Program-made: the position numbers and the translations under genes
In this document: positions 1 to 8,792 of the stretch, piece after piece
Position numbering within the stretch: the stretch's first letter is position 1
Layout: the number at the start of each line of letters is the position of its first letter
DNA from: a virus
Taxonomy: Duplodnaviria; Heunggongvirae; Uroviricota; Caudoviricetes
Virus record (IMG/VR): IMGVR_UViG_2534682164_000017
DNA: 13,905 nucleotides
Reading direction: 5' to 3' (one strand)
Notes under the pieces: generated by a model
The model's input: only the letters and a program-made list of their open reading frames with translations
The model's database searches: none
Told to the model about the DNA's origin: nothing

Positions 1-525
1 CTATATCTTTACTGATCTTCGCTCGTATATCAGCAGAGGGATAATCCAGGTCATTTTTACCACTACCCCAATTCCCATAAAGTTAAAGGTATAATCAGGA
101 ATGATATCGATACCAAATTTTTTAGCATCTTTAACCAATGCAATAAAATCCTGCAAATCTCCCATTGGATTATGGATGGTACAAAGATCTTCGGGTTGAT
201 AAGCATGAAACCAGTAACCCTTTTCTTCTTCGGGAGTTTCTGGTCCGTCGGCGCGGAAAGTTGTCACTGGAGGGATTTGTATATACCCATAATGGCAACG
301 TGCAAACTCAGACATATTTTCCCTGATTTGCTGGTAGGTGGCATTAAAAGCATGAAGAATCGCTTCGCCGGGTTTTTTAGGGGTGATGATTTCACATTGT
401 GATTTCTGAACAGCAGTAAGAGATTTACGCTCAAGTGTCTGCCGTAGATGTTCTGGATTGATTAGTATTTTAAATGTTTCTTGCTGTCCGGAAGGTGACG
501 TAACGTTAATATTATATACATCGGC
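1..525 (-). pseudogene. ygaQ: Glycoside hydrolase family 13 (alpha-amylase-like) gene remnant; 5' end cut by IS1, product far shorter than a GH13 enzyme
   Basis: Minus-strand ORF 1-315 contains the GH13 region motif order (YGYIQIPP ... GDLQDFIALVKDAKKFGIDIIPDYTFNFMG, resembling the conserved G-x-x-V-I-L-D-x-V-x-N-H block). My manual translation shows the same frame stays open upstream from 316 to 525 and runs into the IS1 terminal repeat, so the native N-terminus is missing. A stop at 1-3 ends the product about 25 residues after the motif. The symbol is from synteny recall (ygaQ next to ileY), not a search. Confidence 0.55.
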
Positions 526-580
526 GGTGATGCTGCCAACTTACTGATTTAGTGTATGATGGTGTTTTTGAGGTGCTCCA

Positions 581-697
581 GTGGCTTCTGTTTCTATCAG
601 CTGTCCCTCCTGTTCAGCTACTGACGGGGTGGTGCGTAACGGCAAAAGCACTGCCGGACATCAGCGCTATCTCTGCTCTCACTGCCGTAAAACATGA
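581..697 (+). pseudogene. insA: insA of IS1 copy A, truncated after 38 codons by TGG to TGA
   Basis: Same frame as the intact InsA of copy C ([16 protein letters not shown]...). At 695-697 the sequence reads TGA where copies B and C read TGG (ACATGACAACTG versus ACATGGCAACTG). Confidence 0.8.
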
Positions 698-774
698 CAA
701 CTGCAGTTCACTTACACCGCTTCTCAACCCGGTACGCACCAGAAAATCATTGATATGGCCATGAATGGCGTTGG

Positions 775-1278
775 ATGCCGGGCAACTGCACGCATTATGG
801 GCGTTGGCCTCAACACGATTTTACGTCACTTAAAAAACTCAGGCCGCAGTCGGTAACCTCGCGCATACAGCCGGGCAGTGACGTCATCGTATGCGCGGAA
901 ATGGACGAACAGTGGGGCTATGTCGGGGCTAAATCGCGCCAGCGCTGGCTGTTTTACGCGTATGACAGTCTCCGGAAGACGGTTGTTGCGCACGTATTCG
1001 GTGAACGCACTATGGCGACGCTGGGGCGTCTTATGAGCCTGCTGTCACCCTTTGACGTGGTGATATGGATGACGGATGGCTGGCCGCTGTATGAATCCCG
1101 CCTGAAGGGAAAGCTGCACGTAATCAGCAAGCGATATACGCAGCGAATTGAGCGGCATAACCTGAATTTGAGGCAGCACCTGGCACGGCTGGGACGGAAG
1201 TCGCTGTCGTTCTCAAAATCGGTGGAGCTGCATGACAAAGTCATCGGGCATTATCTGAACATAAAACACTATCAATAA
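775..1278 (+). CDS. insB: IS1 InsB (transposase C-terminal reading frame, normally expressed as the InsAB' fusion by -1 frameshift)
   Basis: The 167-aa translation [16 protein letters not shown]...NIKHYQ is identical to the InsB frame of copy C in this window and matches IS1 InsB as I recall it. Confidence 0.85.
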
Positions 1279-1301
1279 GTTGGAGTCATTACCTACATCG
1301 A

Positions 1302-2068
1302 GGTGATGCAGCAAACTTACTGATTTAGTGTATGATGGTGTTTTTGAGGTGCTCCAGTGGCTTCTGTTTCTATCAGCTGTCCCTCCTGTTCAGCTACTGA
1401 CGGGGTGGTGCGTAACGGCAAAAGCACTGCCGGACATCAGCGCTATCTCTGCTCTCACTGCCGTAAAACATGGCAACTGCAGTTCACTTACACCGCTTCT
1501 CAACCCGGTACGCACCAGAAAATCATTGATATGGCCATGAATGGCGTTGGATGCCGGGCAACTGCACGCATTATGGGCGTTGGCCTCAACACGATTTTAC
1601 GTCACTTAAAAACTCAGGCCGCAGTCGGTAACCTCGCGCATACAGCCGGGCAGTGACGTCATCGTCTGCGCGGAAATGGACGAACAGTGGGGCTATGTCG
1701 GGGCTAAATCGCGCCAGCGCTGGCTGTTTTACGCGTATGACAGTCTCCGGAAGACGGTTGTTGCGCACGTATTCGGTGAACGCACTATGGCGACGCTGGG
1801 GCGTCTTATGAGCCTGCTGTCACCCTTTGACGTGGTGATATGGATGACGGATGGCTGGCCGCTGTATGAATCCCGCCTGAAGGGAAAGCTGCACGTAATC
1901 AGCAAGCGATATACGCAGCGAATTGAGCGGCATAACCTGAATTGAGGCAGCACCTGGCACGGCTGGGACGGAAGTCGCTGTCGTTCTACAAAATCGGTGG
2001 AGCTGCATGACAAAGTCATCGGGCATTATCTGAACATAAAACACTATCAATAAGTTGGAGTCATTACC
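1302..2068 (+). mobile_element. IS1 copy B (767 bp), degenerate: divergent left terminal repeat and several frameshifts
   Basis: Left end reads GGTGATGCAGCAAAC (two substitutions versus copy A). The frameshift window has A5 instead of A6 (CACTTAAAAACTC). A single T is lost (CTGAATTGAGG versus CTGAATTTGAGG) and a base is inserted (TCGTTCTACAAAATC). The right end is canonical ...GGAGTCATTACC. Confidence 0.85.
1357..2053 (+). pseudogene. insA/insB remnants of IS1 copy B, broken by frameshifts
   Basis: The ORF track shows an InsA-like frame (1357-1656) that runs into a third frame (…[16 protein letters not shown]) because of the A5 run. The InsB-like frame (1676-1945) stops early at …RHNLN after the T deletion. 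Confidence 0.75.
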
Positions 2069-2112
2069 CATGTTTATTGCGTGGTTTATAAGTATTGTTA
2101 TTGCACACTCAA

Positions 2113-2188
2113 GGCCCTTTAGCTCAGTGGTTAGAGCAGGCGACTCATAATCGCTTGGTCGCTGGTTCAAGTCCAGCAAGGGCCACCA
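2113..2188 (+). tRNA. ileY: tRNA with CAU anticodon, most likely tRNA-Ile2 (lysidine-modified); elongator tRNA-Met not excluded
   Basis: A 76-nt cloverleaf folded by hand: acceptor GGCCCTT/AAGGGCC, D-stem GCTC/GAGC, anticodon stem GGCGA/TCGCT with loop CTCATAA (anticodon CAT), T-arm GCTGG-TTCAAGT-CCAGC, 3' ACCA. The sequence matches my recollection of E. coli ileX/ileY closely. Confidence 0.8.
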
Positions 2189-2513
2189 AATCATTATTTA
2201 CGTATCAGGAAGAGTTAAGGGTACAAGGGGTACTCGATGGCGGTCTATATTTCATGACTAACGCCATTTCAAGGAAGAAGTGCGGTGGGTGGTTTCGAAT
2301 GAGGGCTGGTGTTTTGGTACGTGGCACGCCACTGCAATGTATTTATCCATCAGTACTCATTCAAAAGTACCTGGAAAAAATGCCTGCTATGCCAAGCGGG
2401 CAAATTGCTTACATGTGGAATTAAGTAATTAACGATAAAGCCAGAGTATTATCATTTATTATACCCCTTCATTTAATCAGGTTAATTACTCAAATCACGG
2501 TAATGACTCCAAC

Positions 2514-3017
2514 TTATTGATAGTGTTTTATGTTCAGATAATGCCCGATGACTTTGTCATGCAGCTCCACCGATTTTGAGAACGACAGCGACTTCCGTCC
2601 CAGCCGTGCCAGGTGCTGCCTCAGATTCAGGTTATGCCGCTCAATTCGCTGCGTATATCGCTTGCTGATTACGTGCAGCTTTCCCTTCAGGCGGGATTCA
2701 TACAGCGGCCAGCCATCCGTCATCCATATCACCACGTCAAAGGGTGACAGCAGGCTCATAAGACGCCCCAGCGTCGCCATAGTGCGTTCACCGAATACGT
2801 GCGCAACAACCGTCTTCCGGAGACTGTCATACGCGTAAAACAGCCAGCGCTGGCGCGATTTAGCCCCGACATAGCCCCACTGTTCGTCCATTTCCGCGCA
2901 GACGATGACGTCACTGCCCGGCTGTATGCGCGAGGTTACCGACTGCGGCCTGAGTTTTTTAAGTGACGTAAAATCGTGTTGAGGCCAACGCCCATAATGC
3001 GTGCAGTTGCCCGGCAT
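2514..3017 (-). CDS. insB: IS1 InsB reading frame
   Basis: 167-aa translation identical to the copy A InsB frame; it overlaps insA in the -1 frame, as expected for IS1. Confidence 0.9.
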
Positions 3018-3211
3018 CCAACGCCATTCATGGCCATATCAATGATTTTCTGGTGCGTACCGGGTTGAGAAGCGGTGTAAGTGAACTGCAGTTGCCATGT
3101 TTTACGGCAGTGAGAGCAGAGATAGCGCTGATGTCCGGCAGTGCTTTTGCCGTTACGCACCACCCCGTCAGTAGCTGAACAGGAGGGACAGCTGATAGAA
3201 ACAGAAGCCAC
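2936..3211 (-). CDS. insA: IS1 InsA (transposition regulator and N-terminal part of the InsAB' transposase)
   Basis: 91-aa translation [42 protein letters not shown]...[12 protein letters not shown] with the zinc-finger-like C-x2-C...C-x2-C pattern. Confidence 0.9.
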
Positions 3212-3719
3212 TGGAGCACCTCAAAAACACCATCATACACTAAATCAGTAAGTTGGCAGCATCACCCAAATCACTGAACTATTCTCTGTTCGCTCACTGA
3301 TGATAAGTGAGTGTCACAACCACGATTTGTATGCGGGCCAATGCCGTAGAGTAAGGATGAAATGTCTCTGCCACGCCTTAAACATCTACTACTGACCAGA
3401 ATACCCGTCGCAGGTAGATGAGTCTTGTGAGCGTTACAGGAGTCTGGCTTTGCTCATTAATCAACGCTATTTAGATATAAATTTCTAACACTCGAAAAAC
3501 GAATTTCACTAATAAATTATAACGGGTGGTTTTTATCATACAGCGAAATAACTTTTTGTTTATTAAATTTAACATTCTTGTGCTAATTTAATTAAAAGTA
3601 CCATGTATAGCATATGAAGCTGTTAATGCCAGCAATTGTCTCAAATGAGCGATTTTTTATAGTGACAAACAATAATAAAATTAAAAATAGCCATGTAGAC
3701 ATTAACTGAGGAATAGACA

Positions 3720-5198
3720 ATGTTAGTTAGTAAAAGCAACGAATTTAACACTAGCTCATTTATAGATAGTGGAAATTGTAATGAAAGAAAATCTTCTGAA
3801 TCCATGGAGCTACTAGCTTATAGTATTATAAATTTAATTTGTAAGGAAGCTGCCTCAGGGACGTATCGCGGTGCTCTTGAAACTTTACAAAAAATGATGT
3901 CTGAATGTATATATCATGAAGGCAACGCCTTTGTCATTATGGGATCTGGAGAGCAATTAAAACGTATTAAATATGATGTTGATGAAAATAACTTAAAAGT
4001 ATTCAACGTATACTTTGATAATAATGAAGAGTTAGTTACTGATGGTGAGCCTGACGTAGTATGTTTAAGCAAGCAGGTCTGGGAAGATCTTCTCATTAAA
4101 CTAAAGCTGGAGAACAAAGAAAATGCGGTTTCTGAAACTGACCTGTCATCGAATAAAAATAATGTTGATCAGTTTATTGAATGCGCTAAGAGAAATGAAC
4201 AGACCCTATTCGATAATATAAGAAAAAGTGATTTTCATGTTGATTCATTTAAGCCAGGTAGTACACGTAGTGTTATTTTAGAAACACAACCAAATGTCTG
4301 TATGGAACCACATAATTTATATGACAACCAAATAGATAAGGTTTCACCTGTAACTAAAAACTCTCAGCAAGTTAAAGGCCACTATGGAGATAAATTTAAA
4401 GAAATGCAGATGTTCCTTAACCAGATGAGCAATGCACTTCAACAGACTCCATCTTTGTCAGAGTCAAAGGAACACACCATAGATATTCAAAAAATAACGG
4501 ATGCCTTTGTGAAAGAATTCCGGGGGGTATTAATTGATAAAAATGGGAATTGTTCAGAACGTTTATTCAATTTTTATGAGTGCTGCTATAAGTTTTTACC
4601 AAGAGCGCAGCCTCAAGATAAAATCGAAAGCTATAATTCAGCACTACAAGCTTTTTCCATCTTTCGTTCATCTACTTTGAATAATAATGATGTAGGGTTT
4701 AATTTTAAATTATTCCCAGAAGTCAAGCTGTCTGGTGAAAATCTTGAAACGGTATTCAAATACAAAAAAGGAAGTTTTGTCCGGGAGATAGCCAGAATTA
4801 ACATTACTCTCCAAAAAGAAGAGGATGGTTTATATAATTTAGGTGGATTGGATTTTAAGGGATGCTTCTTTTCTGGACAGAACTTCAGTAACTATGATAT
4901 TCAATATGTGAACTGGGGAACGTCATTGTTTGATCTTGATACTCCGTGTATTTTTAATGCGCCTGCTTACAACAAGAGTAATGAAAAATCATTAAAACCT
5001 GTGAGCGAAAACGGTTTAAGTGGAGTCTTGACTGATCGTAATAATAAAATAAAACTCATCACGGGCGTGGCACCATTCGATGATATTTTATTTATGGATG
5101 ATGACTTTGATGATAGTTCCTCTGAGGATGATCCCGTTGAGAATAGTCCTGTTGTGACTAGTCCCGTTGTATCAAGTTCTAAAAGCAGTTTTCAATGA
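3720..5198 (+). CDS. Hypothetical 492-aa protein, AT-rich orphan gene; pentapeptide-like repeats near the C-terminus and an acidic Ser/Asp-rich tail
   Basis: A long ORF with GGA at 3710-3712 and ATG at 3720. The gene is markedly AT-rich (about one third GC by eye, against roughly half for the flanking IS and phage DNA). The region GLDFKGCFFSGQNFSNYDIQYVNWGTSLFDLD looks like degenerate pentapeptide repeats. The tail reads DDILFMDDDFDDSSSEDDPVENSPVVTSPVV. No transmembrane segment or signal peptide is apparent. By position it could correspond to the ypjB/ypjC region of E. coli K-12; that is unverified. Confidence 0.7.
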   Translation: MLVSKSNEFNTSSFIDSGNCNERKSSESMELLAYSIINLICKEAASGTYRGALETLQKMMSECIYHEGNAFVIMGSGEQLKRIKYDVDENNLKVFNVYFDNNEELVTDGEPDVVCLSKQVWEDLLIKLKLENKENAVSETDLSSNKNNVDQFIECAKRNEQTLFDNIRKSDFHVDSFKPGSTRSVILETQPNVCMEPHNLYDNQIDKVSPVTKNSQQVKGHYGDKFKEMQMFLNQMSNALQQTPSLSESKEHTIDIQKITDAFVKEFRGVLIDKNGNCSERLFNFYECCYKFLPRAQPQDKIESYNSALQAFSIFRSSTLNNNDVGFNFKLFPEVKLSGENLETVFKYKKGSFVREIARINITLQKEEDGLYNLGGLDFKGCFFSGQNFSNYDIQYVNWGTSLFDLDTPCIFNAPAYNKSNEKSLKPVSENGLSGVLTDRNNKIKLITGVAPFDDILFMDDDFDDSSSEDDPVENSPVVTSPVVSSSKSSFQ

Positions 5199-5310
5199 TT
5201 AATAAATGGCTATTTTTACAAAGAGATAATAACGTAGATTGAAACAATATGTATTATTGATTGATTAAACGGGATTATTTTTTACACTACAACCATTTTG
5301 CTGCCACTAC

Positions 5311-6108: not shown

Positions 6109-7488
6109 ATGAACAGGACCAGTCCCCATTATTGTCGCCGCTCAGTACTTTCCTTATTGATATCTGCCTTGATATATGCCCCGCCCGTGATGGCGGCCTT
6201 TACTACTAATGTTATTGGTGTGGTAAACGATGAGACTGTAGATGGCAACCAACGAGTAGATGAACGAGGTACAACAAATAACACTCATATTATCAACCAT
6301 GGCCAGCAGAGTGTTTATGGCGGAGTATCTAATGGAAGTCTTATTGAATCTGGTGGATATCAAGATGTTGGAAGGAATAACAATTATATGGGGCAGTCTA
6401 ATAATACAACCATTAACGGAGGAAGACAGACAATTCATGACGGGGGCATTTCCACCGGTACGATAATCGACAGTGGCAATCAGGACGTTTATACAGGTGG
6501 TATCAGCAATGGAACGACAATTAAGGGTGGTAATTCACACATAAGTGGGGGGACTGCGAATGGAACCATCATTGATGGTGGAGGGCAGACAGTAACAACT
6601 CAGGGGCATGTTGATGGTACAACGATAAATAAGTCCGGTTATCAGGACATCACGCAAGGAAGTATGGCAACGAACACAATCATAAATGGTGGACGACAGT
6701 ATGTTGAACAGAGCACAGTAGGAACAACCACCATTAAAAATGGCGGTGAGCAAAGAGTATATGAAAGCCATGCGCTGGACACGACGATTGAAGGTGGAAC
6801 TCAGTCTCTGAATAATAAGTCAACGGCAAAAAATACTCAGATCTATTCTGGTGGTACGCAAATTGTTGATTACACCAGCTCCTCGGATGTTATTGAAGTT
6901 TATTCCGGTGGCGTGCTTGATGTTAGTGGTGGTACGGCAACAAATGTTACCCAGCACGATGGTGCAATTTTAAAAACAAACACTAACGGTACGACGGTGA
7001 GCGGTACGAATAGTGAAGGTGCATTCTCCATCCACAATCACGTGGCAGACAATGTGTTGCTGGAAAACGGTGGTCATTTAGACATAAACGCATATGGTTC
7101 GGCAAATAAGACGATTATTAAAGATAAAGGAACAATGTCAGTTTTAACGAATGCTAAAGCTGATGCGACCCGAATAGATAACGGCGGGGTAATGGATGTT
7201 ACCAGAAACGCGACCAATACCATAATCAATGGTGGTACACAGAATATTAATAATCATGGTATTGCCACGGGTACCAATATCAACAGCGGAACACAAAATA
7301 TCAAGAGCGGCGGGAAAGCTGACACGACAAATATTTCCACCGGGAGCCGGCAGGTTGTTGAGAAAGATGGTACGGCAACTGGCAGCAATATTAGCGCCGG
7401 AGGCTCGCTGATTGTCTATACCGGCGGTATAGCACATGGGGTTAACCAGGAGACGGGCAGTGCTTTAGTTGCTAGACTGGCCCCCTGA
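6109..7488 (+). CDS. ypjA: AIDA/Ag43-type autotransporter adhesin, N-terminal signal peptide and passenger repeats only; 3' end (rest of passenger and beta-barrel) replaced by IS2
   Basis: AGGA at 6097-6100 and ATG at 6109. Extended autotransporter-type signal peptide MNRTSPHYCRRSVLSLLISALIYAPPVMA. Many approximately 19-residue repeats of the form T-x-I-x-x-GG-x-Q-x-V-x-x-GG-x-A-x-x-T. Native sequence ends at 7472; the ORF's last codons and stop (7486-7488) lie inside the IS2 terminal repeat. Symbol is from synteny recall (ileY, pin remnant, adhesin), unverified. Confidence 0.7.
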   Translation: MNRTSPHYCRRSVLSLLISALIYAPPVMAAFTTNVIGVVNDETVDGNQRVDERGTTNNTHIINHGQQSVYGGVSNGSLIESGGYQDVGRNNNYMGQSNNTTINGGRQTIHDGGISTGTIIDSGNQDVYTGGISNGTTIKGGNSHISGGTANGTIIDGGGQTVTTQGHVDGTTINKSGYQDITQGSMATNTIINGGRQYVEQSTVGTTTIKNGGEQRVYESHALDTTIEGGTQSLNNKSTAKNTQIYSGGTQIVDYTSSSDVIEVYSGGVLDVSGGTATNVTQHDGAILKTNTNGTTVSGTNSEGAFSIHNHVADNVLLENGGHLDINAYGSANKTIIKDKGTMSVLTNAKADATRIDNGGVMDVTRNATNTIINGGTQNINNHGIATGTNINSGTQNIKSGGKADTTNISTGSRQVVEKDGTATGSNISAGGSLIVYTGGIAHGVNQETGSALVARLAP

Positions 7489-7563
7489 ATCTCCAGACAA
7501 CCAGTATCACTTATTTAAGTGATAGTCTTAATACTAGTTTTTAGACTAGTCATTGGAGAGCAG

Positions 7564-7929
7564 ATGATTGATGTCTTAGGACCGGAGAAACGCAGACGGC
7601 GTACCACACAGGAAAAGATCGCAATTGTTCAGCAGAGCTTTGAACCGGGGATGACGGTCTCCCTCGTTGCCCGGCAACATGGTGTAGCAGCCAGCCAGTT
7701 ATTTCTCTGGCGTAAGCAATACCAGGAAGGAAGTCTTACTGCTGTGGCCGCCGGAGAACAGGTTGTTCCTGCCTCTGAACTTGCTGCCGCCATGAAGCAG
7801 ATTAAAGAACTCCAGCGCCTGCTCGGCAAGAAAACGATGGAAAATGAACTCCTCAAAGAAGCCGTTGAATATGGACGGGCAAAAAAGTGGATAGCGCACG
7901 CGCCCTTATTGCCCGGGGATGGGGAGTAA
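7564..7929 (+). CDS. insC: IS2 OrfA (InsC), helix-turn-helix transposition regulator
   Basis: 121-aa translation [56 protein letters not shown]... matches IS2 InsC as recalled. The ORF-track start at 7519 is an in-frame upstream extension. Confidence 0.9.
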
Positions 7930-8792
7930 GCTTAGTCAGCCGTTGTCTCCGGGTGTCGCGTGCGCAGTTGCACGTCATTCTCAGACGAACCGATGACTGG
8001 ATGGATGGCCGCCGCAGTCGTCACACTGATGATACGGATGTGCTTCTCCGTATACACCATGTTATCGGAGAGCTGCCCACGTATGGTTATCGTCGGGTAT
8101 GGGCGCTGCTTCGCAGACAGGCAGAACTTGATGGTATGCCTGCGATCAATGCCAAACGTGTTTACCGGATCATGCGCCAGAATGCGCTGTTGCTTGAGCG
8201 AAAACCTGCTGTACCGCCATCGAAACGGGCACATACAGGCAGAGTGGCTGTGAAAGAAAGTAATCAGCGATGGTGCTCTGACGGGTTCGAGTTCCGCTGT
8301 GATAACGGAGAAAAACTGCGAGTCACGTTCGCGCTGGACTGCTGTGACCGTGAGGCACTGCACTGGGCGGTCACTACGGGCGGCTTCAACAGTGAAACAG
8401 TACAGGACGTCATGCTGGGAGCGGTGGAACGCCGCTTCGGCAACGAGCTTCCGGCGTCTCCAGTAGAGTGGCTGACGGATAATGGTTCATGCTACCGGGC
8501 TAATGAAACACGGCAGTTTGCCCGGATGTTGGGGCTTGAACCGAAGAGCACGGCGGTGCGGAGTCCGGAGAGTAACGGCATAGCAGAGAGCTCCGTGAAA
8601 ACGATAAAGCGTGACTACTTCAGTGTCATGCCCAAACCAGACGGGTTAACGGCAGCAAAGAACCTTGCAGAGGCGTTCGAGCATTATAACGAATGGCATC
8701 CGCATAGTGCACTGGGTTATCGCTCGCCACGGGAATATCTACGGCAGCAAGCCAGTAATGGGTTAAGTGATAACAGGTGTCTGGAAATATAG
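7887..8792 (+). CDS. insD: IS2 OrfB (InsD), DDE transposase catalytic reading frame
   Basis: 301-aa translation [34 protein letters not shown]...[14 protein letters not shown]..., with the IS3-family integrase-like core. It overlaps insC in the -1 frame. Confidence 0.9.

Follow-up and report, generated by a model that had tools for sequence, protein, structure and literature searches.

In the insertion sequence IS1, a -1 frameshift within an A6C window fuses the reading frames insA and insB' to yield zinc-ribbon/helix-turn-helix and DDE domains, and the circle-forming reaction of this element is known mainly from plasmid assays with overproduced transposase. Circles of IS1 and intramolecular rearrangements are reportedly the subject of Turlan & Chandler 1995, Sekine et al. 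1997, and Shiga et al. 1999. Among other elements, the dimers of IS30, IS21, and IS256/IS911 are described in a review text as arising from one-ended transposase reactions and as able to drive further deletions; in the same text, the dimer junctions are given as having 2-4 bp spacers and a strong junction promoter, and as being very unstable. Here, we examine two IS1 copies (A and B) that stand in direct tandem near the beginning of a 13,905-nucleotide stretch of DNA (IMG/VR record IMGVR_UViG_2534682164_000017; hereafter, the window). This stretch corresponds to the Shigella sonnei draft contig ADUU01000057.1 (GCA_000188795.2), with which it is identical across its 13,198 bases. From the aligned sequences, we consider it probable that the pair was formed when transposase joined the facing ends of two separately inserted direct IS1 copies, with deletion of the approximately 1 kb between them. 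Moreover, the decay that both copies appear to show in the window is very probably draft error and should not be taken as IS1 degeneration.

The tandem pair and its junction

Three IS1 copies were delimited in the window by repeat finding and three-way alignment. Copy A (526-1293, 768 bp, plus strand) and copy B (1302-2068, plus strand; 767 bp in the draft and 768 bp in other assemblies) are direct repeats arranged head to tail, and copy C (2499-3266, 768 bp, minus strand) is inverted, being an intact simple insertion flanked by the 8-bp duplication CAAATCAC at 2491-2498 and 3267-3274. The alignment bore out the coordinates and orientation that a first-pass annotation, made from the window sequence alone, had assigned to the two tandem copies 8 bp apart. 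All three copies are ordinary IS1, as judged from their length and ends, from their reading frames and Pfam families, and from target duplications. Thus, the terminal inverted repeats are imperfect and span about 23 bp (GGTGATGCTGCCAACTTACTGAT / GGTAATGACTCCAACTTATTGAT), copy C holds a 91-residue InsA and a 167-residue InsB frame with TTAAAAAAC, and gene calls on the same IS1 copies in other assemblies carry PF03811, PF12759, and PF03400. Target duplications of 8-9 bp are seen for copy C (8 bp), for B in an allele that has B only (CATGTTTA, 8 bp), and at the A site of an Escherichia coli O121 strain (TACATCGGC, 9 bp). The window copies are also 98-99% identical to E. coli elements annotated as IS1A/IS1B.

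An exact-protein look-up with the 492-residue YpjCB-family protein encoded at 3720-5198 led us to ten loci. Four further S. sonnei assemblies have the same tandem at the same site together with the inverted copy C, these being HE616528.1 (4.99 Mb) and UGZB01000001.1 (4.96 Mb), which are single multi-megabase records, and the drafts AKND01000042.1 and AKNC01000079.1. We take HE616528.1 to be the chromosome of S. sonnei 53G. Because the tandem recurs at one site in four further assemblies, two of them multi-megabase, it is a genuine part of the S. sonnei chromosome, and a repeat duplicated by the assembler, a concern already raised in the first-pass annotation, is very unlikely. It is true that IS1 is highly repeated in the S. 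sonnei genome and that draft assemblers handle it badly; against this, a single structure with an 8-bp spacer occupies a single site in five assemblies from different projects, and the spacer has a sequence that makes mechanistic sense.

The spacer between the right end of A and the left end of B (1294-1301, 8 bp) reads TACATCGA in the window and TACATCGG in the four other assemblies. This consensus 8-mer equals bases 1-8 of the 9-mer TACATCGGC, which is the expected right-hand target duplication of copy A and whose putative left-hand copy is found at 517-525. The spacer would thus be copied from the DNA flanking one of the two joined ends. The left flank had been said to nearly repeat the spacer and to lie against A; the two are indeed related, though the 8-mer itself (517-524) is set off from the end of A by one base, C525. 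On the other side of the pair, CATGTTTA at 2069-2076 represents the right copy of B's own 8-bp duplication, its left copy having gone with the deletion. As previously noted from the sequence, no common target duplication surrounds the pair, which has TACATCGGC before A and CATGTTTAT after B.

With regard to the geometry of the junction, the two copies share one orientation, and the right end of A faces the left end of B over 8 bp, within the 6-9 bp reported for IS1 circles. As read from the aligned sequences, the junction falls exactly at the first base of B, and microhomology is absent. Deletion mediated by microhomology was considered and rejected, since the retained left side (...CGG/C) and right side (A/GGTG) have no base in common and the break lies precisely at the IS end. 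This lack of microhomology, along with a break at the IS terminus, argues for transposase rather than slippage or illegitimate recombination. A simple consensus scan of 1150-1450, which is a weak test, revealed no sigma-70-like junction promoter.

Sequence differences private to the draft

All the sequence differences listed in the first-pass annotation were found in the window when the three copies were aligned base by base. Relative to copy C, copy A has G>A at 697 (TGG>TGA at 695-697, insA codon 39), C>A at 891, and T for C at 1168. In copy B, the left inverted repeat carries T>A at 1310 and C>A at 1313, and, further along, the A6 of the A6C frameshift window is shortened to A5 (1608-1612), one nucleotide is missing at 1942/1943, and one extra nucleotide is present at 1988. 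These differences had been interpreted as showing that both copies are inactivated fossils that rely on copy C for transposase, an interpretation that did not survive the alignment of the window with the four other tandem-bearing assemblies across 13.2 kb. Here, the eight changes that affect A, B, and the spacer (697, 891, 1301, 1310, 1313, the A5 run, 1942/1943, and 1988) all proved unique to the ADUU01 draft. The other four assemblies have the spacer TACATCGG and a canonical B inverted repeat, and are free of the stop codon and of the window's other indels. In UGZB01, A, B, and C are the same in sequence. In HE616528, B matches C throughout, and the sole difference between A and C is at IS1 position 643. 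Both copies of the pair are intact in these two assemblies. Consequently, the pair is not a fossil, as both of its members are intact IS1 in the population, and even if the changes were real, the pair would not depend specifically on copy C.

The distribution of the private differences is also telling. Across 13.2 kb there are 14, of which eight fall in the 1.5-kb tandem, three in an IS2 copy (8014, 8593, and 8619), and three are homopolymer indels (65, 12347, and 12437), the last of these not being strictly private as it is also found in the AKND01 draft. Not a single private substitution occurs in about 9.5 kb of unique DNA, and the clustering has P = 5e-5 for the tandem and P = 5e-6 for all substitutions lying within IS1 or IS2. 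Furthermore, the double variant of B's left inverted repeat was met in none of 62,427 IS1 left ends from 5,426 complete E. coli genomes. Taken from this comparison, the changes in A, B, and the spacer are very probably consensus errors of the draft in multi-copy repeats. In the AKND01 and AKNC01 drafts, copy A is one A short in its A6 run (equivalent to window 832-837); loss of this kind at the frameshift site of IS1 seems to be a homopolymer miscall that recurs in drafts and that can be mistaken for inactivation of the transposase.

That the changes are instead real mutations in a decaying fossil pair, possibly selected to silence a reactive junction between the right and left inverted repeats (IRR-IRL), seems unlikely to us. 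They are present in the deposited sequence, and those at 1301, 1310, and 1313 do cluster at the junction and in the transposase-binding end of B, all three within 13 bp of the junction. However, they are missing from each of the four other assemblies, including HE616528, which is the nearest to ADUU01 and shows no differences from it beyond the private ones. The confinement of private differences to IS1, IS2, and homopolymers, the failure to find the double variant among so many IS1 ends, and the different A-run loss in two other drafts, which is typical of homopolymer miscalls, all stand against real mutation as well. As a separate matter, window position 1168 (IS1 position 643 in copy A) is T in the window, HE616528, and AKND01, and C in UGZB01 and AKNC01, as it is in the other two copies, B and C. 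Either a genuine single-nucleotide polymorphism (SNP) or gene conversion between copies could account for this.

Alleles of the locus

In E. coli, the corresponding region consists of an amylase-family gene on the minus strand, about 560 bp, and a tRNA-Ile(CAT) gene, and the intact homologue of the former is a 750-residue "alpha amylase C-terminal domain-containing protein". What is left of this alpha-amylase-family gene in the window is a remnant at 1-525 (minus strand), which aligns to positions 3001-3526 of locus L001, within an annotated coding sequence (1763-4015), and which has lost its 5' end and upstream region. To the right of the pair, window 2069-2498 aligns to L001 4531-4960. The tandem therefore replaces 1,004 bp (L001 3527-4530), comprising the first 489 bp of the amylase-like gene and the region upstream of it. 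A tRNA gene with anticodon CAT (2113-2188, plus strand) is positioned 44 bp downstream of B, and is designated tRNA-Met by ARAGORN and tRNA-Ile by RefSeq for the E. coli homologue. No sigma-70-like site that might form an IS1-to-tRNA hybrid promoter was seen in a simple scan of 1950-2260.

Alleles with one copy or none had been proposed as something to look for at this site, and both kinds exist in S. sonnei. One locus (L010) is free of IS1, including copy C, and has empty sites reading TATATACATCGGCTGCCAGC and ATCATCATGTTTATTGCG; the former sequence, that of the empty A site, is likewise present in L001 and L008. An allele with only copy B is found in L008 and three similar places, where CATGTTTA stands on both sides of the element (the L008 junctions read ...ATCATCATGTTTA-IS1-CATGTTTATTGCG), the 750-residue gene is intact, and copy C is absent. 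The allele with the tandem and copy C is that of the five S. sonnei assemblies, all of which retain the IRR-IRL junction. Another single-copy allele (L011) has one IS1, whose left flank is TACATCGGC and whose right flank is CATGTTTATT. Two origins would explain it, namely homologous recombination of A with B, or an adjacent deletion that B made independently into the same target. The pair can collapse to one copy by homologous recombination, and the L011 allele is consistent with occasional collapse of this kind. Over 3.4 kb to the left the alleles are identical in sequence, and over 10 kb to the right they differ at just a handful of sites; this near-identity implies that all the allelic variation arose within one recent clone.

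A synthetic probe matching the right junction expected of a simple A insertion was also run against complete E. coli genomes. There was one single-piece full-length match, in E. coli O121 strain 201805972 (CP119441.1), whose IS1 (4433-5200 of locus L014) has exactly the position and orientation of copy A and is flanked on both sides by TACATCGGC. Because its flank is 2.2% divergent from S. sonnei, this insertion is an independent one, and it was ruled out on the same grounds as the ancestor of copy A. That the same 9-bp target was hit independently in the same orientation suggests that the amylase-like gene contains a hot spot for IS1.

Tandem IS1 copies in other genomes

For other natural tandems, we used a 98-nt junction probe, built such that a lone IS1 gives no joined match, against the 5,426 complete E. 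coli genomes. In 325 of them, 339 records had direct IS1 ends lying close together, and at least 37 of the 60 rows listed are single-piece matches spanning 96-99 bp. Besides that of S. sonnei, 16 tandems were read, namely 15 from E. coli genome or plasmid loci (L015-L029) and one from Kluyvera. Their spacers measure 6 bp (n = 3), 7 bp (n = 3), 8 bp (n = 9), and 9 bp (n = 1), and for nine of these tandems the spacer exactly reproduces, in part or whole, the 9-mer that flanks one IS1 end.

Several layouts can be distinguished among these. The one in S. sonnei, where the spacer equals the first N bp of the left 9-mer and the right flank is unrelated, is repeated in pE110019_66 (8 bp) and strain AH04 (7 bp). 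At three loci, the arrangement is X-IS1-X(1..N)-IS1-X, with N being 6, 8, and 9. The spacer corresponds to the last 7-8 bp of the right 9-mer, with an unrelated left flank, at three other loci, and to the last 6 bp of the left 9-mer at one. In plasmid pEC1515-3 and in CP176406.1, a divergent IS1 pair (42-67 differences) lies inside a single 9-bp duplication, and these two pairs seem to have transposed as units. Lastly, the spacer is unrelated to the flanks at four loci, to which can be added Kluyvera, whose CGATGCAC matches no readable flank. We observed too that a heterologous pair with this same spacer is common to Kluyvera ascorbata and two metagenome contigs.

Pattern scans open to any spacer of 0-30 bp were run to counter the bias of the BLAST search. 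The scan of species-representative genomes gave one match (8 bp, Kluyvera) and that of metagenomes gave four (6, 8, 8, and 8 bp). Together, these five matches represent four distinct junctions, and all fall within 6-9 bp (only 6 or 8), for which P is about 3e-4 if spacer lengths were uniform. When a spacer-free BLAST probe was used for spacers of 0-5 bp, the best 60 matches listed were all two-piece matches from wider-spaced pairs. The recurrence of 6-9 bp tandems makes the S. sonnei pair one member of a recurrent class. Such pairs may constitute a widespread E. coli/Shigella class. They would then be footprints of circle-type one-ended transfer acting on sister copies or on neighbours, this reaction would regularly give rise to small deletions, and some of the pairs would afterwards move as units. 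We make this suggestion tentatively, as something quite possible though short of probable. A literature search, in which little of the older subscription literature was covered, gave no description of natural IS1 tandems, and they are not described in a laboratory-evolution paper on IS1.

Origin of the pair

The events that would account for the S. sonnei pair can be arranged in three steps. In the first, B would have inserted 44 bp upstream of the tRNA(CAT) gene and duplicated CATGTTTA, a state that is seen in the extant B-only allele. Copy A would then have entered the amylase-like gene, roughly 1 kb from B, with duplication of TACATCGGC, a target whose duplicated form is known here from an unrelated E. 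coli alone. In the last step, the 3'-OH at the left inverted repeat of B would be joined to the same strand 8 bp outside the right inverted repeat of A. The presumed chemistry is that of the one-ended strand transfer in IS1 circles, acting here on the facing ends of neighbouring copies, and replication would fix the deletion. The expected loss amounts to 1 + 1,004 + 8 = 1,013 bp, that is, the last base of A's right duplication, the host DNA, and B's left duplication, and the product would be IRR-TACATCGG-IRL.

A number of points weigh against this reconstruction and the conclusions built around it. The intermediate with A, 1 kb of host DNA, and B was not found in any S. sonnei assembly among the approximately 24 contigs read. 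The L011 allele could be a direct adjacent deletion by B into the same target, and, with too few SNPs in the flanks, phylogeny does not settle which event came first. Next, the comparison with IS1 circles uses the 6-9 bp of flanking DNA that Sekine et al. 1997 reportedly found between the ends, and the BLAST ranking of the E. coli tandems favours spacers near 8 bp. Finally, it is from the comparison of assemblies that the private changes are attributed to draft error.

Three other routes to the pair deserve to be weighed beside the joining of facing ends. According to the first-pass annotation, A inserted next to an existing B, which in its fullest form would mean that B already possessed an L011-type left junction, made by B-mediated adjacent deletion, before A inserted beside B's left end. 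A one-copy allele with exactly that left junction does exist in L011, and TACATCGGC is a proven IS1 target in the O121 strain. Nevertheless, the fit is inexact, and we regard this route as improbable. Identical duplications should abut A, whereas the flanks are unequal, with TACATCGGC on the left and TACATCGG followed by B's GGTGATG on the right, so that an additional 1-bp loss is needed, one that is seen identically in four assemblies. Moreover, insertion of A beside B leaves unexplained the 1,004-bp deletion and the simple-insertion right junction of B, and the partial 6-8 bp spacers of other tandems are unlike target duplications. Ordinary replicative adjacent deletion by B would give a product of the same appearance if both B ends attacked a 9-bp staggered target that happened to be at the edge of A, and adjacent deletions by IS1 are called classical, and said to leave the IS without a duplication, in the review text. 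Yet, the odds that such a deletion would by coincidence stop 8 bp from a further IS1 end are roughly 1 in hundreds, and each of the 16 other tandems, like every unbiased pattern match, shows a spacing of 6-9 bp as well. We hold the adjacent deletion to be unlikely.

The remaining route is dimerisation of one IS1 in place, whether by one-ended attack between sister chromatids or by unequal exchange between duplications, followed by a 1-kb deletion from the right end. Tandems of the form X-IS1-X(1..N)-IS1-X in E. coli (L016, L018, and L024) indicate that such a reaction happens. For S. sonnei, however, the right junction of the pair is base for base that of a simple B insertion, which a random deletion end would not reproduce, and dimerisation from the L011 state should have left ACATCGGC or TACATCGGC as the spacer, not TACATCGG. 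On these grounds, we judge dimerisation to be distinctly improbable. Descent from an IS1 dimer had been offered as an alternative in the first-pass annotation, and it comes closer in spirit to the route that we prefer, though the data favour the joining of two separately inserted copies.

Neighbouring features

Other features of the window and of related loci were also noted. A second tRNA gene at 12532-12608, called tRNA-Met(CAT) by ARAGORN and 92% identical to that at 2113-2188, heads a cluster with Arg-TCT, Thr-TGT, and Gly-TCC (12610-12842). In one S. sonnei genome (CP032523.1; L004 1-6423), the tRNA(CAT) gene has an island starting within its 3' half, with the join at window position 2143, and the island has genes for a tyrosine integrase, a D5/primase-like protein, and a capsid/protease. 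The ypjA autotransporter gene is interrupted by an IS2 copy (IS3 family) at about 7473-8803, after which lambdoid prophage genes (DnaB-like helicase, RusA, and antiterminator Q) occupy 8804-13905. Rfam matches in this prophage stretch are c4-a1b1 (11328-11380), isrK (11341-11417), C4 antisense RNA (11443-11526), and sRNA-Xcc1 (11660-11743).

Comparison with known systems

The main yields of this analysis are the correction of the fossil reading and what would be a clean natural example of inside-end joining by IS1 with deletion. The S. sonnei locus offers a clean, stepwise case of genome erosion by IS1, in which insertions and then a presumed transposase-mediated 1-kb deletion killed an amylase-like gene beside a tRNA gene, and several of the intermediate alleles still segregate in the clone. 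On a broader level, many tandems of E. coli have 6-9 bp spacers and partial copies of duplications, which suggests that separate IS1 copies on natural chromosomes undergo the circle reaction with one another. If true, the spacer signature would serve as a simple sequence mark for such events in genome surveys.

Compared with IS1 circles, the S. sonnei junction is similar in having abutted right and left inverted repeats, a short spacer taken from the DNA that flanks one end, an exact IS terminus, and a deletion, and its 8-bp spacer falls within the 6-9 bp reported for circles. In contrast to circles, the joined ends come from two chromosomal copies, with the outcome being a chromosomal tandem and a 1-kb deletion rather than an excised circle, and the pair is an allele fixed in nature rather than the outcome of overproducing transposase on a plasmid. 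The tandem dimers (IS30)2, (IS21)2, and those of IS256/IS911 likewise have head-to-tail copies whose inner ends form a circle-like junction, according to the review text. Compared with these dimers, the IS1 junction is dissimilar in that its spacer is 8 bp, a simple scan finds no sigma-70-like promoter, and it persists in several S. sonnei lineages. As for composite transposons of the Tn9 type, the inferred precursor resembles them in its two direct IS1 copies flanking about 1 kb, while the difference is that the inside ends would have been used instead of the outside ones, and the intervening DNA was lost instead of mobilised.

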